A stretch of 64,000 nucleotides of DNA, from the NCBI GenBank assembly GCA_965263235.1, contig OZ253667.1, forward strand, positions 642,189 through 706,188, in the 5' to 3' direction. The stretch comes from Pseudomonadales bacterium. Lineage in GTDB: Bacteria > Pseudomonadota > Gammaproteobacteria > Pseudomonadales > UBA7434. A program made the position numbers and the translations under genes. This document shows positions 20,175 to 47,980 of the stretch, one piece after another. The number at the start of each line of letters is the position of its first letter. Positions within the stretch are counted from its first letter, which is position 1. The notes beneath the pieces are model-generated. The model had not been told where the DNA came from and did not search any database. It saw only the letters and a list, made by a program, of their open reading frames with translations.

Positions 20175-21449
20175 TCAAGTGCTATGAATGTCGGTGCGAT
20201 GTTGCGCGTATGCCCACTCCAAAAAACGGTGGATAGCGGCTATCGTAAGCTCAGTGCGTGGTGAGTGGATTAACTCGAACGCATGATCAGCGCCAATGAG
20301 CTTTGCAAAAGCGACCGGATTGGTTGATTTGTTCTCTAGCGTCAACGCAAAAGCGCTGGATTCTTCGATAGGGATAATACTGTCTCGAGTACCATGGATA
20401 ATAAAAAATGGCGGCGCGTGGGGGCCTACCTGGTCGACGGGAGAATAGTTTTGCCAGGCTTCCGGCTCTTCGTCGGGAAGGCTGTGCATGATCTGCTGTT
20501 CCAGAAACTTTTGTGTCTCTTTGCCGCGTACTGCGGGGTTATACCGGGTGAACAGGTCGAAAGCACCGAATAGCGGCACGCAAGCCTGTACACGGGTGTC
20601 GACCTTGATATCGTCCGGCTGCAGCGAGGGGTTATTAGCTGTTAGTCCCATCAGGGCAGTCAAGTGGCCGCCCGCTGAACCACCGGTCGTAGCAACAAAA
20701 TTTGTATCCATGCCATACTCGCCGCCGTGCGTTTTTATCCAGTCTAACGCTTTTTTGCAGTCATGCAGATGCTTGGGGTAGCCAACACTTGGGCTCAGCC
20801 GATAATTTATCGCAACACATGTCCAGCCGCGTCGTGCCATGAGGTGCATTAAGGGTAAGCCCTGATGCGATTTGTCGCCTATGATCCACGCGCCGCCGTG
20901 AATTTGTAATAGTACTGGGCTGCCCGCGTCAGGAATATTTTTTCTGGTATCGCCTGCAGGGCGATAAATGTCGAGTGTTTGTCGAATACCGCCATTGTCG
21001 TAGGGGATATTGCGAATAATCTCGATCCTGTCATCGCTAAATGAGATCGGATTTTTCCAGTCGTCAAACGTTATCGTGCTTTTAAACAGCGCGCGCCTTG
21101 CTTGCGGAATTGCCTGTTGGTAGTTGTCGCCCAGTGCCTCACGCAAAGCGACTTCGAGCTGGCGATCTGTTTTAAAGGCGCGAAAGAAGTGCCATGCAAG
21201 CACAGGCCAGCAGATGATTAAAATCCACATGGCGAGAATTCCAATCGGAGAAAACAGCGCGCCAAATAGAATAAGCACAAATGCAGATATTATTTGCAGT
21301 GCCAACAATAGCCATGCTAGCTCGATCGTAAAGTTGGAAAATGCAAAAACGAGCACTGTCCAGTACATGTTGGGATAACGGCGAGGTATTAACGAGAAGG
21401 CCACTCCGGTCGCGCTAGCGAATGCGAGCATTAGCAAAAGAATCGACAT
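20175..21449 (-). CDS. membrane-anchored alpha/beta hydrolase (esterase/lipase, Abhydrolase_3 type)
   Basis: 424 aa. The N-terminus has about 3 TM helices. It carries the oxyanion motif HGGAW and the nucleophile elbow GGSAGGH. Confidence 0.8.
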   Translation of the reverse strand: MSILLLMLAFASATGVAFSLIPRRYPNMYWTVLVFAFSNFTIELAWLLLALQIISAFVLILFGALFSPIGILAMWILIICWPVLAWHFFRAFKTDRQLEVALREALGDNYQQAIPQARRALFKSTITFDDWKNPISFSDDRIEIIRNIPYDNGGIRQTLDIYRPAGDTRKNIPDAGSPVLLQIHGGAWIIGDKSHQGLPLMHLMARRGWTCVAINYRLSPSVGYPKHLHDCKKALDWIKTHGGEYGMDTNFVATTGGSAGGHLTALMGLTANNPSLQPDDIKVDTRVQACVPLFGAFDLFTRYNPAVRGKETQKFLEQQIMHSLPDEEPEAWQNYSPVDQVGPHAPPFFIIHGTRDSIIPIEESSAFALTLENKSTNPVAFAKLIGADHAFELIHSPRTELTIAAIHRFLEWAYAQHRTDIHST

Positions 21450-21807
21450 TAAGCAGTTACCTTTGAGGTTATATTCCGATCTTATAGGTTGTCAGGTTAA
21501 TGGGCTAACGATTATGTTTTGTGCAATCAAATGATGGAGCTTTATATCACACGCAAAACGAATTCTTATATTCAAACTGCCAAAAGTTGACGCCAATCAT
21601 GTGTTATTGAAAAGCTCGCACGGCTTCTTTTTGGTGCTTCGCGCACCAAGGCGGCGCTATCTATCCATCGGCACGCTAGAGTAAAATTCGATCTATTTTA
21701 ATGCATCTAATTGAATATTATGTAGAAAATGTTCTTGGCTTGGTATGTGCGTGATAGCAATCGTCCGTACCCTTGTCATACGAGACAATACATTCTAGTT
21801 AAGAAAT

Positions 21808-21940
21808 AGAGCGCTAGGGTTCCGGTTGGCATTTAAAGTTTGTTTGCCAACGTCTGGTCCGAGAGCGGTCGACCTCAACCTTTCGGTGCGCTGCATTGAT
21901 AAGGCATGGGTTACACGGCGGGAAAAAAGCCCGGGAGACT
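21808..21940 (+). promoter_or_regulatory. guanidine-I (ykkC/yxkD) riboswitch aptamer
   Basis: All three hallmark conserved blocks are present in order: ctagggttccgg (21814-21825), ctggtccgagag (21854-21865) and acacggcgggaaaaaagcccgggaga (21913-21938). The element lies 77 nt upstream of an NMT1-type ABC / carboxylase operon, which is the classic genomic context. Confidence 0.85.
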
Positions 21941-22016
21941 TGCTTGGTCTTGGATGCCAGGGGTACTCCGTGTCAATCACATGCTTTTTGCTTAGCGCAA
22001 ACTGAGAGGTCCTTCC

Positions 22017-23000
22017 ATGAAACGTCTTTCCACATTTGTTTTAGCCCTAACTTATTCATTGCTCGCGTTGCTGGGTTCGTCTGGCAGCTATGCCGAGCCT
22101 GCTTTAAAAATTGGATACAGCGATTGGCCTGGCTGGGTAGCCTGGGAGATCGCTATTGAAAAAGACATGTTTGAAAAAGCTGGTGTTGACGTTGAGTTTG
22201 AGTGGTTTGATTACGTTGCAAGTATGGACGCGTTTGCCGCGGGTCAGCTAGATGCCGTCGCTATGACTAACGGTGATACCCTGGTGACTGGTGCAACGGG
22301 AGCGCAGGGAGTGATGATTTTGATCAATGACTACTCCAACGGCAACGACATGGTAGTAGCTCGGCCTGGCATTGAGTCCGTTGCTGACTTGAAAGGGAAG
22401 AAAATTGGCGTTGAAATCGGCTTCGTTGGGCATTTACTGTTGTTGAATGCGCTAGAAAAAAATGGCTTGAGCGAAAGCGATGTGAAGCTTGTGAATGTGC
22501 CTACTAACGAAACTCCCCAGGTTTTGGCGTCAGGTGATGTGGATGCGATTGTCGCGTGGCAGCCTAACTCTGGTCAGGCACTTGATCTAGTCCCTGGCTC
22601 AACTCGCATTTACTCAAGCGCGGATGAACCTGGCTTAATCTATGACGTGTTAGCTGTTTCACCATCGAGCTTGCAAGCGCGAAAAGCAGACTGGAAGAAG
22701 GTGCTGAAAGTTTGGTATGAAGCGGTAGATTTCTTGAATGACCCAGCTACGCGAGAAGAGGCAGTATCTATCATGGCAGCGCGTGTTGGTCTTGAGCCAG
22801 ATGTTTACAAAGGCTTTATTAGCGGCACTAAAATTCTAACGCTGGAAGAGGCGAAGGCATTTGTAGGTAAAGAAGCCGGGTTCAAATCTTTGTACGGTTC
22901 TTCAAAAATTTCTGACGAGTTTAATGTGGCGAACGAAGTTTATAGTGACGTTCAGGATCTGGATATCTATATCGATACAAGTATCCTGGAGTCAATGTAG
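22017..23000 (+). CDS. ABC transporter substrate-binding protein (NMT1/THI5-like, urea-carboxylase-associated type)
   Basis: 327 aa with a signal peptide ([14 protein letters not shown]) and the NMT1-like pattern [12 protein letters not shown]. It is the first gene after the riboswitch. Confidence 0.85.
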
Positions 23001-23063
23001 CTACTCATATAGAAAGCGCCCTTGCGACTTTAAATTCTATGAGCATGTTCCTGTTGCCTGATT

Positions 23064-24026
23064 ATGTCTAACGAACTCCTTAAAGTGTGCTTGCCCATGA
23101 GCAGGCCAAAAAGGCGCTTCGTAACGCTGTTGAGCTTTGTTTTTCCTATTCTTTTATGGTGTGCAGTGAGTTACCTGCCTTTTTTCTGGCATCCGATGGT
23201 TAAGATTGAGCAGCCGGGTGATGTTGGATATTTCAAGCAGGGGATGCTGGTGGAAAGGGAATTGTTCAACAAGGAATATGCTGGTGTTGAGAGTGCGGGC
23301 GGCGCTGTGCCTAGCGGCGCTCGTGCCAATCCGATCTACCTGCCGGCACCGCATGAGGTGGTAACGGCACTTTACACGTCGTTCACAACCGAGCCTCAAC
23401 GTCGCAGCGAAAAGTGGTTGCATGAAAGCCTTTGGAGCAGTATCCAGGTGATATTCTGGGGCTTCTTCCTATCATCGTTGTTCGGTGTGCCACTGGGTAT
23501 TCTTGCAGGAACATATGATTTCTTTTCGAGATTATTCGAGCCTTTTATTGAGTTCTTTCGCTATCTTCCCGCGCCAGCATTTGGTGCATTGGCAGTGGCA
23601 ATTCTCGGGATTTATAACGCGCCGAAAATAGCGATTATTTTTATAGGCACCTTCTTTCAACAGGTGTTGGTAATCGCAAATACAACGCGGAAATTAGATC
23701 GCTCACTTGTAGAGGCAGCGCAAACGCTCGGGGCAAAGAACAAGTCCCTGTTGTTTAAGGTTGTTGTTCCAGGTGTGTTGCCAGACCTCTACCGAGATAT
23801 GCGCATATTGTTAGGCTGGGCCTGGACCTATTTAATAGTTGCAGAATTAATTGGGACTAGCTCAGGTATTACCTGGTTTATAACTCAGCAGGCGCGCTAC
23901 AAAAATTTTGATAACGTGTTTGCCGCGATTTTTATCATCGGAATTATCGGATTGACATCAGACCTTTTATTGGCAGCGCTGGGTAAACGCCTTTTCCCAT
24001 GGCAGAAAACTGAGGCGGGTTCTTAA
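23064..24026 (+). CDS. ABC transporter permease
   Basis: 320 aa, multi-TM, with the EAA-like loop [23 protein letters not shown]. Its stop overlaps the next start (TAATG). Confidence 0.85.
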
Positions 24027-24940
24027 TGAGTCTTGCAGATATCCCCAGTTATCTCGACCAGTCTGAGGCAGTTCGTGATCGATTTGAGCGCTTAAAGCAA
24101 AGGCCGGTTTCTCTGGAAGTAAAGAATTTAAGCAAGCAGTTTCAAACAGCTAAGTCTACTGTCACTGCGTTGGATAATATTAACTTTAGGGCGTATAAGC
24201 GCGAATTCGTTTGCGTAATAGGCCCGTCGGGTTGCGGAAAATCTACGCTGGTTAGAATTCTAGCGGGGCTTGAAAGCGCTAGTAGTGGTGAGGTTCTGCT
24301 TAACGGCGAGATTATAGATAGTCCTGGTTCGGATCGGGGGATGGTATTTCAGGGTTACACCTTGTTCCCCTGGCTTAGCGTAAAGCGGAACGTTATGTTT
24401 GGTTTGCTCGAATCGGGATGCGGAGTGGTTGAGGCAGAAGAGCAGGCTTTGCAGTGGATTGACCTGGTTGGGCTGTCAAAGTTTGTCGACGCATATCCAC
24501 ACCAGCTTTCGGGCGGAATGAAACAGCGAGTGGCGATTGCAAGAGCGCTGGCAAACCAGCCAAAGATATTATTAATGGATGAGCCGTTTGGCGCGTTAGA
24601 CCCGCAGACGCGCTGTAAAATGCAATCTCATCTTATGGAAATTTGGCAAAACATTGATATCACAGTTGTGTTTATTACGCATGATCTCGATGAGGCAATT
24701 TACCTTGCCGATCGGATACTGGTGCTTGATGCACACCCTGGCCGTGTGCGCGAGGTAATAGAGGTGCCCGTGCCTCAGCCGCGAGATAGCAGCCAGCTTT
24801 TAAGCCCAGAGTTTCTCGCCACAAAACAAAGGTTGGAAGAACTTGTCCACCCGGAAGATATTGAAACGTCCGACAGTGAAGACAAACTGAATATGGTGCG
24901 TATGGTCGGTTTAGATGGCGATGTACCGAGTGTATTTTAA
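24026..24940 (+). CDS. ABC transporter ATP-binding protein
   Basis: 304 aa with Walker [10 protein letters not shown], signature LSGGMKQR and Walker B LLMDEPF. Confidence 0.92.
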
Positions 24941-24988
24941 ATCGCGGTTTCAAAAGTAAATTTGCGAAGATCTAACTAAAAACATTTT

Positions 24989-25738
24989 ATGAGTGAGTAT
25001 ATTAAATCCATTGATTATAAGACGCGGTTGCCGTCGGGAGCGCACTGGTCGCTGCGCGCACGTAAGGGCACGATTATGCGCCTGACTGATCCCGGAGGAT
25101 CTGCCAATGTCGGCATGATGTTCTACAATCCAGAAAATCTGCTTGAGCGATATAACGCACCGGATACGCTTAAATGCCAGCACACATTTAAATTAACTCG
25201 TGGTAATTGTCTTTATTCAGATATGGGGCGTATTTTCGCTTCGGTAGTTGATGATGAATTTGGTTGGCACGATACTGTTTGTGGAAATATCAGGGCAGAG
25301 CATGTCGAAGAGCGATGGGGTGAAAGAAATTATCAGCAAGACCGAAACGGGTGGAAACAAAATGGCCACGACTCGTTTCTTGTAGAGCTCGCCAAATACG
25401 GTCTGGGGCCTGCCGATCTGGGCGCAAATGTTAACTGGTTTAGTAAAGTTGTTGTCGATGACGATGGTAATCTAACACTCGACACAGATGAGTCCTCTGC
25501 TAACGATAGTGTTATTCTGCGCTTCGAAATGGATACGTTGGTTGTTATGCACACTTGCCCGCACCCCTTCGATGTTAGCGACGATTACCCAAAGTTCTCA
25601 GTTGGTGTCGAGCTTGGCCTCGCGCAACCTGTTCAAGATGAAGACTATTGTAAGAACTTTCGACCTGAAAACGAGCGTGGCTTTGCAAACAATGCGCTCT
25701 ACCTGTTGGGTTTTGATGTTGCTGGAGCTGCTTTATGA
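24989..25738 (+). CDS. urea-carboxylase-associated DUF1989 protein (carboxyguanidine deiminase subunit-like)
   Basis: 249 aa. It is one of a paired DUF1989-type set immediately upstream of the carboxylase. Its stop overlaps the next start (ATGA). Confidence 0.75.
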
Positions 25739-26376
25739 TTCTTGAATCCCAACTGGAAGTCGAAAAATCGATTCTACGTGAAGTGGTTGAAGCGGGCGAT
25801 TATTATATTGGCGTCGCAAAGGAGGGGGAAACGTTTCGTATCTTGGATCTGGAAGGTAACCAGGCTGCCGATATCCTGTTTTTCAATGCCAATAATCCTG
25901 AGGAGCGCTATAGCGCGATGGACACTATCCGGGAGCAGGGCAATGTTTATCTAACGGCTGGATCACAGTTGCGCTCCAGCAGTAATAATGTGATGTTGAC
26001 CATTACCGCAGATACCTGTGGTCGCCACGATACTTTAGGTGGCGCTTGCGCTACAGAGAGTAATACAGTGCGTTACGATCTGGAAAAACGCCATATGCAC
26101 GCCTGCCGCGATAGCTGGATGTTGGCTATCGCCGAAAACCCGCATTATGGCATCGACAAAAGCAATATAGGTCACAATATCAATTTTTTTATGAACGTGC
26201 CTATTACCAGGGAAGGCGGATTGACCTTTGCAGACGGTATTTCAGCGCCGGGTAAATATGTAGAGCTTCGTGCAGAAATGGACGTTATCGTACTTATTTC
26301 AAACTGTCCGCAGTTAAACAATCCCTGCAATGCTTACAACCCTACGCCAATTGAATACTTGCTCTGGAGCGCTTAA
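25735..26376 (+). CDS. urea-carboxylase-associated DUF1989 protein (second subunit-like)
   Basis: 213 aa. It is a paralogue-like partner of the preceding ORF and is translationally coupled to it. Confidence 0.75.
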
Positions 26377-26476
26377 GCCCTTTTTCATAACCTCGGCGGA
26401 CGACCGCTGTTGTATTGATTCGCATCTGCTTTAGTTGCGGAGCTACGTGATTCGGGACGGCCCGGGACAAAGTCAG

Positions 26477-29400
26477 GTGTTTAAAAAAGTTCTAATCGCT
26501 AATCGTGGCGCAATCGCGAACCGGATTATTCGCACGTTAAAAAAGCACTCAATCACTTCGGTTGCGATGTACGCTGAAAGTGATATCGACAGCCTGCATG
26601 TTCAAAATGCTGACGAGGCGTATAGTCTTGGAGAAGGTGCTGCGGCTCAAACTTATCTCGACCAGCAGAAGGTGATTGCTATCGCGAAGCGTTGCGGTGC
26701 GGAAGCCATTCATCCTGGCTATGGTTTTCTTTCTGAAAACCCCGACTTTGTTGAGCTATGTAAAAAAAATAATATTGTTTTTATCGGTCCTACTAGCGAC
26801 CAGATGCAGGTTTTCGGATTAAAGCATCGTGCGCGTGAAGTTGCCGAGCAGGCAAATGTTCCGCTACTCCCTGGCAGTGATTTGCTCAAAGACCTTTCCT
26901 CAGCAATATCTAGTGCCGAGGAAATTACCTATCCCCTTATGTTGAAAAGCACGGCTGGCGGCGGGGGTATTGGTATGCAATTGTGTCACTCGCAGGCAGA
27001 GCTAGAGCAAGCATTTGATTCGGTTAAGCGCTTGAGCGCGAATAATTTTTCAAATGATGGTGTGTTTCTAGAAAAATTTATTGCACGTGCCCGGCATATC
27101 GAAGTTCAGGTTTTTGGCGATGGCAAAGGAAGCGCGCTTGCTATTGGGGAGCGCGATTGTTCGAGCCAGCGACGAAATCAAAAAGTGGTAGAGGAGTGCC
27201 CTGCGCCAAATCTGAATGACGTGATAAGGCATAGGCTTTATCAAACCGCCGAACAGCTGTTGTCCAGCGTGAACTATCGTAATGCCGGGACAGTGGAGTT
27301 TATCCTCGACGCAGATACTAACGAATTTTATTTTCTTGAGGTAAATACACGTCTGCAGGTAGAGCATGGTGTTACCGAAGAAGTCTATAAGGTGGATTTG
27401 GTCGAGTGGATGTTGCGCTGTGCTGCCGGCGAAAATCTAAGCCTGGCCGAAAAGCGTGAGGCGTTAGTGCCAGAAGGTCACGCGATACAAGTACGTATCT
27501 ATGCAGAGGATCCCTGTAAAGATTTTCAGCCCAGCCCTGGTTCGCTAAGTAAAGTTCAGTTTCCAAAAAAGGCTGGGTTGCGTGTCGATCACTGGGTAAC
27601 GTCTGGAATTGAAATTCCACCCTATTTTGACCCAATGATCGCGAAGCTTATTTTTCACGCGCAAGATAGAGTCGCTGCTATAAGTGGTTTGCAAAAAGCG
27701 CTTGGTGAAACATGCCTGTATGGCAGCCAAACCAATTTGTCTTATGTGAAAGCTTTGTTGGATGACAAAGTAATACGCGATGGGCAGGTTACTACGCGTT
27801 ATTTAAATGATTTTAAGTTTTCATCTGCGCGTATCGATGTTGTAAGTGGTGGTACGCAAACAACTATTCAGGACTATCCTGCACGGACGGGATATTGGGA
27901 TGTTGGCGTCCCTCCTTCTGGCCCCTTTGACAGTTATGCGTTTCGACTTGCTAACCGTTTGCTGGAAAATGAAGAGCAGGCAGCAGGTCTGGAAATTACC
28001 ATGCAGGGGCCAACATTGCATTTTAGCTGCGACATGCAGTTTGTGCTTGCTGGCGCAGAAATTGATGCAGCGATTGACGGGGCGGTAGTTCCACTTAATG
28101 CGGTAGTTAGTATTAAGGCAGGACAAACGCTTGTTCTGGGCCGCGTTGCTGAGCAGGGTTCGCGGACATACCTTTGTGTGCGCGGCGGATTACAATGCCC
28201 ACGATATTTGGGTTCGCGATCTACGTTCACGCTGGGTCAATTTGGCGGCCACAATGGTCGGGCGCTCTGTGCTGGGGATGTGTTACAGCTAAATGCATCG
28301 GCGACGGAATGTGAACAAAAAACGCTGGACAAGGCTCTAGTGCCGGTTTTTTCTAATCAATGGGATTTGCGTGTTGTTTATGGTCCACATGGTGCTCCCG
28401 ATTTTTTTACCAAAGAAGATATCGATGCATTTTTTGATGTTGACTGGGAGGTGCACTATAACTCCAGCCGGACTGGAATTAGGTTGGTGGGGCCAAAGCC
28501 TCAATGGGCACGTAAAGATGGTGGTGAAGCGGGGCTGCATCCATCTAACATACACGATAATGCGTATGCGTTTGGCACCGTCGATTTTACCGGGGATATG
28601 CCTGTAATTCTTGGGCCAGATGGTCCTTCGCTGGGTGGCTTTGTATGTCCTGCCACTGTTATCCAGGCGGATTTGTGGAAGCTGGGCCAGCTGCGTGCCG
28701 GCGACAAGATCCGGTTTGTATCAGTGAATGTCAAGACGGCCGTGCAGCTTGAAAAAGAACAGCTTCAGTTAATAGACAAGCTAAAACCTGTTGACGTTGT
28801 TGCGCCTTTTGTAGAAAGAACCTCCCCAATATTAGCCAGGCTCGACAAAGCCGAGGTTGGCGTTGATGTCGTTTATCGTGCAGCGGGAGATCATTTTTTA
28901 TTGGTTGAGTATGGTGATTTGGTACTCGACATCGAGCTTCGTTTTCGCGCACATGCCTTAATGCGATGGCTGGAAGAGAATCGGGTAGACGGTGTCAGGG
29001 AGTTAACTCCAGGGATACGCTCGTTACAAATTCATTATGACAGCCAGCTTATTGGTTGTGATTCGCTAATAGAGCATGTTCAGTGTGGTGAACGGGAGTT
29101 AGCTGGCAAGCTGGATGAGATTAAAGTGCCTTCGCGAATTGTCTACCTTCCGTTGTCCTGGGACGACAAAGCTTGTAAGCATGCCGTAGAAAAATATGAG
29201 CAAAGCGTTAGGGAAAATGCGCCATGGTGTCCAAGTAATTTAGAATTTATCCGGCGTATTAACGGACTTAATTCCATTGAAGATGTTAAAGAGATTGTAT
29301 TTTCAGCATCGTATCTGGTGATGGGTTTAGGTGATGTTTATTTGGGTGCGCCTGTGGCGACGCCAATCGACCCTCGACATCGCCTTGTTACTACTAAATA

Positions 29401-30064
29401 TAATCCCGCGCGTACATGGACTGCCGAAAACTCGGTTGGTATTGGTGGTTCCTATTTGTGTGTTTATGGAATGGAAGGGCCGGGGGGCTATCAGTTTGTC
29501 GGTCGAACGTTGCAAATGTGGAACCGATTTAAAAAGACTAACGAATTTTCCAAGCCCTGGCTGCTGCGCTTTTTCGACCAGATTCGATTCTATCCGGTTT
29601 CTCACGATGAGCTTATGCAAATCCGTAAGGATTTTCCGCAGGGGCGTTACTCGCTTCGTATTGAAGAAAACGAGTTTAGTGTTGGCGAATATAAGCGGTT
29701 TGTTGCAAGTAATCAGTCGGAAATTGATAAGTTTAGCGTTTCTCGAGAGTCGGCTTTTAATGCAGAACTGGAAAACTGGCATGCGACGGGCCAGTTCAAC
29801 TTTACACCTAAAGAACAAACATCTACCGAAGCTAGCGTCGAATGGCCAGAGGGTAGCTCAGTAGTTGATAGCCCGGTTTCTGGCAGTGTTTGGAAGATTG
29901 AAGTTGAAACTGGTCAGCTGGTTGAATCGGGAGAGTGCCTGATGATTTTGGAGTCGATGAAGATGGAAATACCAATCCACGCACCTGTCGCTGGCGTGGT
30001 CAATCATGTTTTGCTTAAAGAAGGTCAGCGGGTAAATGCTGGTCAGGCCCTGTTGGTTCTGTGA
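26477..30064 (+). CDS. biotin-dependent urea/guanidine carboxylase
   Basis: It has a biotin carboxylase N-terminus (KKVLIANRGAIANRI), an ATP-grasp domain, allophanate-hydrolase-subunit-like (KipA/KipI) central domains and a C-terminal biotinyl motif ESMKME. The ORF is open from 26435, but an in-frame GTG at 26477 gives the usual MFKKVLIANRG-type N-terminus. Confidence 0.9.
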   Translation: MFKKVLIANRGAIANRIIRTLKKHSITSVAMYAESDIDSLHVQNADEAYSLGEGAAAQTYLDQQKVIAIAKRCGAEAIHPGYGFLSENPDFVELCKKNNIVFIGPTSDQMQVFGLKHRAREVAEQANVPLLPGSDLLKDLSSAISSAEEITYPLMLKSTAGGGGIGMQLCHSQAELEQAFDSVKRLSANNFSNDGVFLEKFIARARHIEVQVFGDGKGSALAIGERDCSSQRRNQKVVEECPAPNLNDVIRHRLYQTAEQLLSSVNYRNAGTVEFILDADTNEFYFLEVNTRLQVEHGVTEEVYKVDLVEWMLRCAAGENLSLAEKREALVPEGHAIQVRIYAEDPCKDFQPSPGSLSKVQFPKKAGLRVDHWVTSGIEIPPYFDPMIAKLIFHAQDRVAAISGLQKALGETCLYGSQTNLSYVKALLDDKVIRDGQVTTRYLNDFKFSSARIDVVSGGTQTTIQDYPARTGYWDVGVPPSGPFDSYAFRLANRLLENEEQAAGLEITMQGPTLHFSCDMQFVLAGAEIDAAIDGAVVPLNAVVSIKAGQTLVLGRVAEQGSRTYLCVRGGLQCPRYLGSRSTFTLGQFGGHNGRALCAGDVLQLNASATECEQKTLDKALVPVFSNQWDLRVVYGPHGAPDFFTKEDIDAFFDVDWEVHYNSSRTGIRLVGPKPQWARKDGGEAGLHPSNIHDNAYAFGTVDFTGDMPVILGPDGPSLGGFVCPATVIQADLWKLGQLRAGDKIRFVSVNVKTAVQLEKEQLQLIDKLKPVDVVAPFVERTSPILARLDKAEVGVDVVYRAAGDHFLLVEYGDLVLDIELRFRAHALMRWLEENRVDGVRELTPGIRSLQIHYDSQLIGCDSLIEHVQCGERELAGKLDEIKVPSRIVYLPLSWDDKACKHAVEKYEQSVRENAPWCPSNLEFIRRINGLNSIEDVKEIVFSASYLVMGLGDVYLGAPVATPIDPRHRLVTTKYNPARTWTAENSVGIGGSYLCVYGMEGPGGYQFVGRTLQMWNRFKKTNEFSKPWLLRFFDQIRFYPVSHDELMQIRKDFPQGRYSLRIEENEFSVGEYKRFVASNQSEIDKFSVSRESAFNAELENWHATGQFNFTPKEQTSTEASVEWPEGSSVVDSPVSGSVWKIEVETGQLVESGECLMILESMKMEIPIHAPVAGVVNHVLLKEGQRVNAGQALLVL

Positions 30065-30075
30065 GAGAGTTTTAG

Positions 30076-31920
30076 ATGGCTACTGGTTTCGAAGAATTAG
30101 ATGTTTTGTCTATTGGGGCAGTTCGAGACGCATATTTGCGCGATCAATTAACGCCTGCACAGCTGTTGGCTGAGCTCGACAGGAGAAACGAGCAGTACGA
30201 ATCACATAATATCTGGATATACCGGTTGAGCGATAAGGAGTTAACACCTTATATTGAGGGTCTCAAAGAAAAGGATCCAGAAACACATTCATTGTGGGGC
30301 GTCCCCTTTGCGATTAAAGATAATATTGATTTAGCAGGTGTTCCGACGACTGCCGCTTGCCCCGAGTTTTCTTATATGCCTCGCGAATCTGCAACTGTGG
30401 TGCAGAAGTTGATTGATGCTGGCGCGATACCGATCGGCAAAACCAATCTTGATCAATTTGCAACAGGGCTGAATGGTACTCGCTCGCCTTATGGAGAATG
30501 TAGAAACGCGTTTAATGCCGATTATATCAGCGGTGGATCGAGCGCTGGTTCTGCGGTGTCGGTCGCGCTGGGTTTGGTCAGTTTTAGCCTGGGTACAGAT
30601 ACGGCTGGTTCGGGCCGAGTGCCAGCCTGCTTTAATAATTTGATTGGTGTAAAACCAACGCGGGGTTTGCTGTCGGCGAAAGGTATGCTGCCTGCGTGCA
30701 AGAGTTTAGACTGTATGACAGTATTTGCGCTTCACGCGAATGACGCAAATACGGTGCTCTCGGTTGCCGAGGGCTTTGATTTTGGTGATGCTTATAGTAA
30801 AAAAAATACCTACGCTAATTCAGCTCGGCAATTTGGTAGTCATGAAGGCGAGCTCAAAGTAGGCGTGATAAAACCTGAGCAACTGCAGTTTTTTGGCAGC
30901 TCCGCCTACCAGCAAGCTTATGCGCAAACAGTTGAAACGTTAGATCAGGGCATTGCGGATCATTGCAGAATTGAATGGGTGGAAATTGACTACATACCAT
31001 TTGATGAGGCTGCGAAGCTTTTGTATGAAGGCCCGTGGGTGGCTGAGCGCTACTTAGCTACGCAGCCGTTAATCGATGATAACCCCGATGCAGTTTTTCC
31101 AGTCGTGCGCGGAATTATCGAGCAGGGTAAGCAGCCAAAAGCCAGCGAACTGTTTAAGGCGCAGTATCGGCTGCAGGCTCTAAAGCAAGTGTGTGATGCC
31201 GCTATCGAAAAAGTTGATTGTCTTTTGTTACCCACTGCTGGTTGTTGTTTTACCATTAAAGAAATGTTAGATCAGCCGGTGCTGCGAAATAGTCAGCTAG
31301 GCCACTACACCAATTTTATGAATTTACTCGATTACGCTGCTGTTGCTGTGCCGACCCAGATTGCGAGTAACGGTCTGCCATTCGGAATTACGTTGGTTGC
31401 CGATGCCTTTAGTGATCGCAAATTACTATCGATTGCTAATGGTTTTAGCAATCTATTTGATTTGCCTTTGGGCGCATCAGATATGCGTGAAAAAAAATCG
31501 GTAAGGGCTGGTGTGAGTGATCTTAACCAAGTTGATGTGTTGGTATGCGGCGCGCACCTGTCTGGTTTGCCGTTGAATTGGCAGCTTGTCGAACGCGGGG
31601 CAAAGCTTAAAACCGCCACTAAAACGGCTTCCCAGTATCGCATGTATGCGCTCGCTGGTGGGCTGCCGTTTAGGCCAGGGCTTATTCTAGATAAGCAAAA
31701 AGGTAAAGCGATTGATGTCGAAGTGTGGCTCATGCCAATGAGCGAATTTGGTAGCTTTGTTAACGGCATACCCGCGCCGTTAGGGATAGGAAAGGTTGAG
31801 CTTGCGGACGGCTCGCATGTGAGTGGCTTTATTTGTGAGCCCTATGGTGTTGAAGGTGCTGAAGAAATCACTGAGTTAGGTGGTTGGAAAAAGTATTTAC
31901 AGCAAAAAAACTCCGCATAA
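30076..31920 (+). CDS. atzF: allophanate hydrolase
   Basis: 614 aa. It has the amidase signature GGSSAGSAVSVALG...GTDTAGSGRVPA plus the AtzF-type C-terminal domain, and it directly follows the carboxylase. Confidence 0.9.
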   Translation: MATGFEELDVLSIGAVRDAYLRDQLTPAQLLAELDRRNEQYESHNIWIYRLSDKELTPYIEGLKEKDPETHSLWGVPFAIKDNIDLAGVPTTAACPEFSYMPRESATVVQKLIDAGAIPIGKTNLDQFATGLNGTRSPYGECRNAFNADYISGGSSAGSAVSVALGLVSFSLGTDTAGSGRVPACFNNLIGVKPTRGLLSAKGMLPACKSLDCMTVFALHANDANTVLSVAEGFDFGDAYSKKNTYANSARQFGSHEGELKVGVIKPEQLQFFGSSAYQQAYAQTVETLDQGIADHCRIEWVEIDYIPFDEAAKLLYEGPWVAERYLATQPLIDDNPDAVFPVVRGIIEQGKQPKASELFKAQYRLQALKQVCDAAIEKVDCLLLPTAGCCFTIKEMLDQPVLRNSQLGHYTNFMNLLDYAAVAVPTQIASNGLPFGITLVADAFSDRKLLSIANGFSNLFDLPLGASDMREKKSVRAGVSDLNQVDVLVCGAHLSGLPLNWQLVERGAKLKTATKTASQYRMYALAGGLPFRPGLILDKQKGKAIDVEVWLMPMSEFGSFVNGIPAPLGIGKVELADGSHVSGFICEPYGVEGAEEITELGGWKKYLQQKNSA

Positions 31921-32098
31921 AAAATCACCATGTTACACATGGGTGACGATAATAAGAAATCGATTTCACAAATAGGTAGAAAAATCGAAATAAACTAGTC
32001 ACGCTCTTTTCACGAGCGGGCCGCAAGATAAAGAGATAAGTAGTGGCTTGTACGACTTAACGAGCCGCATACCTTCTTTCCTATAGCGGGCCGTTTCG

Positions 32099-47471: not shown

Positions 47472-47637
47472 GTATGAAACACCTCCTGTGTTTCACCCTT
47501 CGGGCGCCTTACGGGCGCGCTAAATCGCTCCAGGCGATTTGGTGAGCCCGCTTCTTGTGTTCATCTGTCGCAAACCTCGGCCAATAAAAAACCCCAACCG
47601 GAAAACGGTTGAGGTTTGTTTTTTGGTGGAGACGGCG
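47466..47637. repeat. right copy of the ~170-nt direct repeat (runs into the authentic ssrA 3' end)
   Basis: See 41790-41958. It contains the ssrA terminator ccccaaccg-gaaaa-cggttgagg (47592-47614). Confidence 0.85.
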
Positions 47638-47980
47638 GGAGTTGAACCCGCGTCCGTCAGTCCTCTGCCATCGGCTCTACATGCTTAGATCCGCCTATTA
47701 ATTTTATCTCTCTCGGCCCAGCGGTCGGGGTGATGAGAGACGAGCCCGGTAAAAGGTTTCGCGCATTGGCCCCGAACGTGTCGCTGCGCTAGCTTGTTCT
47801 GTATGACAGTCACTTCTTGTTTACAAGCATCCAATGGTGACTGCTAGCAGGGTTTAAGCCGCTAGAGCGTAGTTTTCGTCGTTGGCAACTATAAAGTTAC
47901 AGCGATTGTTTTACGAGAGTCACTACCCTCTCGGCATGCACCTTTGGTTTCGTAACCGGCGTCGAATCCAGATCGTCCCC
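47624..47980 (-). ncRNA. ssrA: tmRNA (transfer-messenger RNA)
   Basis: On the minus strand the 5' end reads GGGGACGATCTGGATTCGACGCCGG and the 3' end reads GGACGCGGGTTCAACTCCCGCCGTCTCCACCA. The internal tag reading frame encodes ANDENYALAA followed by a stop. Confidence 0.96.
47854..47886 (-). other. tmRNA tag-peptide reading frame (ANDENYALAA plus stop)
   Basis: The minus-strand sequence is GCC AAC GAC GAA AAC TAC GCT CTA GCG GCT TAA. Confidence 0.9.

Follow-up and report, generated by a model that had tools for sequence, protein, structure and literature searches.

How does a riboswitch of the guanidine-I family, in which terminator-based regulation is the precedent, control an operon when a scan finds no terminator between its aptamer and the first gene? 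The question is raised by a stretch of 64,000 nucleotides (nt) from a Pseudomonadales bacterium (contig OZ253667.1, positions 642,189 to 706,188; the whole stretch is called the window below), in which a Guanidine-I (ykkC) aptamer at 21803-21939 on the plus strand lies ahead of seven genes for the import and breakdown of guanidine. An earlier reading of the letters, the sequence-only reading, had marked a riboswitch here and left undecided whether it acts on transcription or on translation. Our computational analysis places the aptamer in the known class and leans towards translational control, in which one strand of the aptamer's P2 helix would sequester the Shine-Dalgarno sequence (SD) of the first gene.

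Results

The aptamer and its relatives

We scanned the whole window against Rfam 15 with cmscan (Infernal) and obtained two matches above the gathering score, RF00442 and a transfer-messenger RNA (tmRNA). The RF00442 (Guanidine-I) match spans 21803-21939 on the plus strand with 77.9 bits against a gathering score of 63 (E 3.7e-12), and covers model positions 1-107 without truncation; the sequence-only reading had proposed the covariance model as a check of its riboswitch, and the check was thus passed over the full model. A permissive Rfam scan of 21400-22100 gave nothing meaningful besides Guanidine-I, with no other family at E up to 1. The three invariant blocks that the reading had picked out lie exactly where it put them (ctagggttccgg at 21814-21825, ctggtccgagag at 21854-21865 and acacggcgggaaaaaagcccgggaga at 21913-21938), and the distance of 77 nt that it gave from the aptamer end to the ATG at 22017 holds as well. 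Compared with the RF00442 consensus the variable loops are enlarged, by 11 nt in the P1b loop and by a 32-nt insertion in P2. Folded in isolation, the 137-nt segment adopts the secondary structure of the family (P1, P1a, P1b, P2 and P3) at -43.6 kcal/mol. The helices listed here follow the aptamer consensus structure.

21803-21939, plus strand: Guanidine-I (ykkC subtype 1) aptamer, by RF00442 match, consensus fold when folded alone, and covariation
21809-15/21864-70, plus strand: P1 helix
21818-24/21855-60, plus strand: P1a helix
21825-31/21845-51, plus strand: P1b helix
21871-75/21908-12, plus strand: P2 helix, with extension
21919-22/21930-33, plus strand: P3 helix
21934-39, plus strand: aptamer tail
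21913-21939, plus strand: P3 and 3′ tail ACACGGCGGGAAAAAAGCCCGGGAGAC, the guanidinium pocket by comparison with the residues of PMC5340920

Relatives of the locus were sought through the periplasmic substrate-binding protein (SBP) encoded by the first gene. A look-up of the identical protein gave no record. Homologue searches covered 185,579 species genomes and the Joint Genome Institute (JGI) metagenomes, from which 160 SBP loci were taken. The best homologues, at most 81% identical, come from marine Gammaproteobacteria (Cellvibrionaceae, Oceanospirillales-type bacteria, Thiodiazotropha and others). An alignment of 18 aptamers (A1), made up of the window aptamer and 17 homologues found 5′ of related transporter genes, provided a covariance model, with which guanidine-I aptamers were found in 50 of the 160 loci. 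About 38 of them are located 49-84 nt 5′ of the SBP start codon, like that of the window; the remainder are divergent or positioned after the transporter genes.

In the 18-sequence alignment 95.7% of cells in the aptamer helices are paired, compared with 24-55% in slid controls; double-sided changes occur at 10 aptamer pairs, and none of 500 column shuffles reached the observed covariation score. The guanidinium pocket and the dock between P3 and L1 are defined by the crystal structure of the Dickeya dadantii (Dda) aptamer (C64, C66, G67, G68, G84-G87, an AG platform and an A-loop; PMC5340920). Equivalents of all of these are present in the window: ACACGG at 21913-18 supplies C64, C66, G67 and G68, GGAG at 21934-37 supplies G84-G87, the L1 AG platform is found within GGUCCGAGAG at 21856-65, and an A-rich P3 loop lies at 21923-29. 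The pocket columns (the 21913-21939 region) are invariant across the alignment. On account of the RF00442 score, the consensus fold, the covariation and the pocket nucleotides, the aptamer is real far beyond chance, and a fortuitous match to the Guanidine-I model, which we considered, was rejected. By sequence, 21803-21939 is a genuine Guanidine-I (ykkC subtype 1) aptamer, a standard member of the known class, and the RNA would be expected to bind guanidine.

A predicted alternative fold that reaches the SD

The minimum free energy (MFE) fold of 21803-22040 keeps the P1 domain, but P2 and the outer P3 pairs give way to one long interrupted hairpin, in which the linker between aptamer and first gene is, with interruptions, the reverse complement of the 3′ half of the aptamer. 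We refer to this as the OFF fold, and to the fold with the aptamer closed as the ON fold.

21934-40/21962-69, plus strand: OFF helix, GGAGACU with GGU-A-CUCC (MFE fold)
21909-16/21970-78, plus strand: OFF helix, ACAC and GGUU with GUGU-C-AAUC (MFE fold)
21901-08/21980-87, plus strand: OFF helix, AAGGCAUG with CAUGCUUU (MFE fold)
21878-95/21989-22010, plus strand: OFF helix, ACCUUUCGGU-GCGCU-GCA with UGC-AGCGC-ACUGAGAGGU, the SD lying inside (MFE fold)
21878-21895, plus strand: anti-SD strand ACCUUUCGGUGCGCUGCA within the 32-nt P2 insertion, pairing over 10+5+3 bp with 21989-22010
21943-21969, plus strand: linker hairpin (local CUUGGU:GCCAGG) and gamma strand; 21962-69 pairs with the tail (OFF), 21947-66 with the leader (ON)
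21968-21987, plus strand: delta strand CCGUGUCAAUCACAUGCUUU, complementary to the P2 3′ strand and invariant GGUUACACGG (21901-21918)
21985-21989, plus strand: tract of five U (U5) right after the long OFF-state stem, seen in the sequence; a possible weak or atypical intrinsic terminator
21989-22019, plus strand: SD strand, with GAGAGG at 22004-22009 and the ATG at 22017 (sequence and MFE fold)

In this fold GGUUACAC of the aptamer pairs with 21970-78. The sequence-only reading had noticed that ccgtgt (21968-73) could pair with the aptamer's acacgg (21913-18); that pairing is present in the MFE fold and its counterpart recurs in relatives, and it is thus part of a larger design that recurs among them. 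Of the two elements between which the reading could not choose, catgcttttt (placed at about 21980) lies at 21980-21989, and the SD gagagg is present too, its position being 22004-22009 rather than 22003.

The z-score of the whole-region fold is unremarkable (-1.45), and we therefore scored the interaction of aptamer and linker against shuffled linkers. It amounts to -18.3 kcal/mol, compared with -7.6 ± 3.4 kcal/mol in 200 dinucleotide-shuffled linkers (z = -3.1, one shuffle of the 200 being as low). The 35 relatives have a mean z of -2.1, with 16 of them below -2. Of the pairing probability of the SD window, 0.72 falls on the P2 5′ strand (21878-95). The duplex of the P2 5′ strand with the SD strand reaches -24.5 kcal/mol in RNAduplex, within the top 1.1% of 18,190 genomic windows; since RNAduplex nulls are broad (shuffled sequences reach -37 kcal/mol, values that we checked to be genuine), we report empirical ranks only. 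The P2 5′ strand is conserved as a GACCUCC-like sequence, which is in itself an anti-SD.

The linkers of the relatives follow a common order: a hairpin closing with AUCUCUCG or CCUCUC (the complement of CGGGAGA), then CYGUGYAAC, then the SD. The gamma strand of the window (21943-69) corresponds to the AUCUCUCG element, whose helix with CGGGAGA is paired in 98.8% of cells in a 12-sequence alignment, and the conserved CYGUGYAAC element is complementary to invariant GGUUACACGG. Among 31 relatives whose ensembles were computed without constraints, 24 have the SD paired to P2 strands and 23 have GGUUACACGG paired to the linker. Overall, the OFF helices are 91.3% paired in the 12-sequence alignment, compared with 35-58% for slid controls.

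A probable promoter and possible nitrogen control

The pattern TGGC-N8-TGC, typical of sigma-54-dependent promoters, occurs within 300 nt 5′ of the aptamer in 27 of the 35 loci where the riboswitch leads into the SBP gene (background 0.058 per 300 nt), and in 23 of the 35 it lies 67-77 nt before the aptamer start, the window copy being at -67.

21736-21750, plus strand: sigma-54-type -24/-12 element TGGCTTGGTATGTGC, by the TGGC-N8-TGC pattern, which recurs in relatives

This element is a candidate sigma-54 promoter that probably drives the operon. Transcription would start near 21761, and the leader would therefore measure about 255 nt, some 40 nt of it before the aptamer. The sequence-only reading had spoken of a 570-nt leader; the figure is correct as the intergenic distance, since the coding region of a divergent esterase gene ends at 21449, and the leader itself is probably the shorter one just given. 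A consensus sigma-70 scan returned only a weak match at 21489-21518, at chance level.

NtrC-like sites (at least 10 of 12 positions of TGCACC-N5-GGTGCA) are found at -92 to -139 in 10 of 27 relatives (background 0.023); the best such site of the window, CGCACCAAGGCGGCGCT at 21643-59, matches only 9 of 12. These motifs suggest that the riboswitch loci are under joint control by nitrogen limitation and guanidine. In the literature searched we found no paper tying guanidine riboswitches to sigma-54 or NtrC. A palindrome, TTGGTGC-N5-GCACCAA (21632-50), overlaps the CGCACCAAGGCGGCGCT site about 118 nt 5′ of the predicted start; it may serve as an activator site or form a small hairpin, and has no statistical support on its own.

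A leader element and the proposed ON fold

The part of the predicted transcript that precedes the aptamer contains a second partner for the linker.

21767-21786, plus strand: transcribed leader element (alpha) GUACCCUUGUCAUACGAGAC, 5′ strand of a P0-like helix, complementary to linker 21947-66

The duplex of leader 21767-86 with linker 21947-66 comprises 11 + 6 bp at -26.9 kcal/mol, a value matched by 4 of 1000 shuffled leaders; paired with 26 foreign linkers, the window leader averages -10.0 kcal/mol and reaches -12.7 kcal/mol at best. Once the aptamer is held in its consensus fold, the leader:linker helix forms and encloses it, and it is mutually exclusive with the tail:linker hairpin. When the leader is included, the computed energy gap between OFF and ON drops from 18.3 to 9.2 kcal/mol.

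In relatives, the leaders (from predicted start to aptamer) contain an element of the type CGAGAG(A/C)U, which mimics the tail of the aptamer and extensively complements the first half of the linker; the complementarity extends over about 19 bp in locus L129 and more than 25 bp in L065. The leader and linker sequences of the window differ from those of the relatives, but the pairing relationship holds. In the 12-sequence group the leader helix is 94.7% paired, compared with 26-61% in slid controls. The leader element may be an anti-sequestor or antiterminator that would take the linker strand when guanidine locks the tail.

Transcription or translation

Two observations make control lean translational: a consensus scan from the aptamer to the ATG returned no intrinsic terminator, and the P2 5′ strand complements the SD strand. 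We think it rather probable that the leader is an ON switch whose main point of action is the start of translation of the first gene, the ON polarity being suggested by family precedent and pathway logic. The proposed mechanism would run as follows. Transcription from the sigma-54-type promoter (21736-50) would give the seven-gene operon a 5′ untranslated region of about 255 nt, which would fold co-transcriptionally, that is, under kinetic control. Without guanidine, the linker would unzip the aptamer's 3′ half, the tail GGAGACU pairing with 21962-69, GGUUACAC with 21970-78 and the P2 3′ strand with 21980-87; the P2 5′ strand (21878-95), thereby freed, would pair with the SD strand (21989-22010). 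This would place the first gene's ribosome-binding site at the foot of a single long, interrupted hairpin and turn expression OFF. With guanidine, P2, P3 and the tail would be locked, linker 21947-66 would pair with leader 21767-86 in a helix closed round the aptamer, and the SD would become more accessible, turning expression ON.

Several observations weigh against this mechanism. By calculation the OFF fold is favoured over the ON fold by 9-18 kcal/mol, and switching would thus have to be kinetic or use tertiary or ligand energies that lie outside the folding model. The mean unpaired probability of the SD rises only modestly, from 0.27 in the free ensemble to 0.43-0.44 with the aptamer closed. 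Almost no compensatory double changes are seen in the OFF helices of the 12-sequence alignment, so that their pairing represents conservation and not covariation, and the leader helix is likewise without double-sided changes in the 12-sequence group. The relatives are not close (best SBP identity 81%), which makes fine-scale covariation of the window's own linker and platform impossible. Finally, the U5 tract (21985-89) follows the long OFF stem, and the published guanidine-I examples work via transcription terminators (PMC12186494, PMC5340920).

The last two points are also what speaks for a classical transcriptional ON switch, in which the hairpin 21901-21987 followed by UUUUU (21985-89) would terminate transcription without guanidine, binding would allow readthrough, and the SD pairing would be secondary or incidental. 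The lower stem of this hairpin (GCAUG-GGUU-ACAC:GUGU-AAUC-CAUGC) adjoins the U5 tract, and in four relatives (L131, L076, L072 and L152) a U-run comes right after the gamma strand, making clear terminators there that use the tail strand. In the window, the aptamer tail does have a downstream partner (21934-40 with 21962-69), but the only U tract (21985-89) follows the longer, branched stem: the hairpin is 87 nt long with a branched interior, and its lower stem is only moderately GC-rich, all of which is atypical for an intrinsic terminator, and the terminator scan was empty. Moreover, the complementarity continues for 20 nt past the U tract into the SD, and about 20 of the 35 relatives lack any U-run yet retain the SD, P2 and GGUUACACGG complementarities. 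We consider termination as the principal mode of control unlikely, although a weak or atypical terminator at the U5 tract, or dual control, may add to the translational control that we favour. Both the emphasis on translational control and the part given to the leader helix are proposals.

The operon downstream

Seven co-directional open reading frames (ORFs) follow the aptamer at 22017-31920 on the plus strand, separated by gaps of 63, 48, 58 and 11 nt and joined by two overlaps.

22017-23000, plus strand: ABC importer periplasmic binding protein (SBP), NMT1/SsuA-like (Pfam/NCBIfam)
23064-24026, plus strand: ABC importer permease (Pfam/NCBIfam)
24026-24940, plus strand: ABC importer ATPase (Pfam/NCBIfam)
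24989-26376, plus strand: two DUF1989 paralogues, the subunits of a heteromeric carboxyguanidine deiminase (TIGR03425, 309 bits; TIGR03424, 321 bits)
26435-30064, plus strand: biotin-dependent guanidine carboxylase of 1209 amino acids, usually annotated as urea carboxylase (TIGR02712, 1836 bits)
30076-31920, plus strand: allophanate hydrolase (TIGR02713, 767 bits; Pfam Amidase and AH_C domains)

The TIGR03425, TIGR03424 and TIGR02713 matches are all above the curated cutoffs. The guanidine carboxylase pathway and its importer, including the carboxyguanidine deiminase function of DUF1989 proteins, have been described (PMC12186494, PMC11410670). In the numbering of the Kluyveromyces lactis enzyme, Asp at positions 1330 and 1584 marks a guanidine carboxylase, and Asp in place of Asn at 1330 separates it from urea carboxylases (PMC11410670). 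Alignment to 3va7/5i8i puts Asp717 of the window carboxylase opposite K. lactis Asn1330 and Asp967 opposite Asp1584, and with Asp at both diagnostic positions the enzyme bears the guanidine signature. The "carboxylase operon" that had been noted 3′ of the aptamer is, as judged by its predicted products, an operon for guanidine import and breakdown to ammonia, with one guanidine-I leader before all seven genes, and this gene context is the most typical one for the guanidine-I family. A short hairpin with a T-run on the minus strand, CCATGTGTAACATGG, lies just past the stop codon of the allophanate hydrolase gene (31928-31942). It scored as terminator-like for the minus strand only, though both flanking ORFs are on the plus strand, and the end of the operon is thus not clearly marked.

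A single leader for the whole operon has to be weighed against an arrangement in which the aptamer controls only the transporter genes and the carboxylase and hydrolase genes are controlled separately, as they are in enterobacteria, which have a guanidine-II riboswitch ahead of those two functions (PMC12186494). Several related loci (L001, L004, L009, L014 and L015) indeed have a guanidine-II riboswitch (mini-ykkC) about 4.9 kb past the SBP start, and in others (L011 and L012, minus strand) guanidine-I aptamers are found on the opposite strand, facing a divergent operon, so that these genes come under guanidine riboswitches by several different arrangements. In the window, however, the Rfam 15 scan detected neither a guanidine-II nor any other riboswitch inside the operon, and the gaps and overlaps between the genes leave little space for a second leader; separate control here appears improbable.

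Least credible of all is a subtype-2 ykkC variant sensing ppGpp (guanosine tetraphosphate), PRPP (phosphoribosyl pyrophosphate) or a nucleoside diphosphate, since the overall fold is common to those RNAs and guanidine-I, but subtype-2 RNAs have pyrimidines at the positions of Dda G67 and A38 (PMC5340920), where in the window the G67 equivalent (21917) is a G and the GAGAG dinucleotide platform is intact (the discriminators of subtype 1), while its neighbours are genes of the guanidine carboxylase pathway and not purine or nucleotide genes, and the permissive scan returned no other Rfam family; such a specificity was rejected on pocket residues and gene context.

Related loci without the riboswitch, and a tmRNA gene

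Contrary to expectation, the closest SBP homologues have no riboswitch at the position 5′ of the SBP gene. An exact inverted repeat, GTATTAC-N14-GTAATAC, stands before the SBP gene in 47 of the 160 loci, all of them without a guanidine-I riboswitch and including the closest ones (L001-L015, L019, L021-L023 and others; for example L001:3953-3980). Its spacer is AT-rich and of constant length, with varying sequence, and the repeat ends just 5′ of the SD. In 42 of the 47 loci the repeat begins 20-23 nt after the start of a TGGC-N8-TGC pattern and so overlaps the predicted start of transcription. The repeat has the look of a different regulatory element in the riboswitch's place, either a protein operator or a 5′ RNA hairpin. 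The window does not contain this repeat.

The second match of the Rfam scan is a full-length tmRNA (ssrA) gene at 47624-47980 on the minus strand (RF00023, 204.6 bits, E 4.7e-82). The region at about 42-48 kb has a lower GC content (0.42-0.46) and a local dip in GC skew. Because tmRNA genes are common integration sites, an island adjoining this one is possible.

Discussion

The aptamer and its gene context are textbook, and the comparative view of the expression platform is the part likely to be useful to riboswitch specialists. What goes beyond the textbook, on computation only and with modest novelty, is a single riboswitch for seven genes, an apparently translational platform with P2 as the anti-SD, and the context of a sigma-54 promoter and a leader helix. 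The annotation of a complete guanidine assimilation operon under a single leader predicts that the host can use guanidine as a nitrogen source. Guanidine-I riboswitches are generally described as terminator-based; the loci compared here point to a translational variant in which the conserved P2 strand takes on a second role as anti-SD, and also to an auxiliary leader helix and a link with nitrogen control through sigma-54. We tentatively propose, at rather less than even confidence, that in this group of marine Gammaproteobacteria guanidine-I aptamers belong to a conserved module undescribed in the literature searched, consisting of a sigma-54 and often NtrC-type promoter, a tail-mimicking leader and a zipper-like OFF hairpin with the P2 5′ strand as anti-SD, in which the switch would be translational and not terminator-based.

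The same set of genes, likewise under riboswitch control, is known from guanidine assimilation in Raoultella terrigena / Klebsiella michiganensis and Pseudomonas syringae (PMC12186494, PMC11410670). In enterobacteria, however, the cluster is split, with guanidine-I before the importer and deiminase genes and guanidine-II before the carboxylase and hydrolase genes, whereas in the window one guanidine-I leader precedes all seven.

The guanidine-I riboswitch of Synechocystis gdmH, which is under NtcA (PMC12704784), follows the same logic, in which both nitrogen limitation and guanidine are needed; in the window the nitrogen input would come via the candidate sigma-54 promoter. The promoter type is different, the Synechocystis enzyme is a guanidinase and that of the window a carboxylase, and the nitrogen link in the window comes from sequence motifs only.

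The leader:linker helix resembles the P0 helix of PRPP and ppGpp subtype-2 ykkC aptamers (PMC6031431) in joining sequences that flank the 5′ and 3′ ends of the ykkC fold. In subtype 2, P0 is part of the aptamer and touches the ligand, and that paper describes the guanidine aptamer itself as without P0; the helix of the window, in contrast, is separated from the aptamer by 22 nt and 7 nt and overlaps the strand used in the OFF state. Its role would be that of an anti-sequestor or antiterminator.

A close parallel is the D. dadantii guanidine-I aptamer (PMC5340920), which shares with the window the P1/P1a/P1b/P2/P3 fold, the invariant blocks and the pocket residues. In both, the last P3 residues and the tail have an alternative partner downstream. 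In D. dadantii that partner is a terminator arm, whereas in the window no canonical terminator was found after the aptamer; here the alternative pairing spans the invariant GGUUACACGG junction and P2 as far as the SD, and the 32-nt P2 insertion provides the anti-SD strand.

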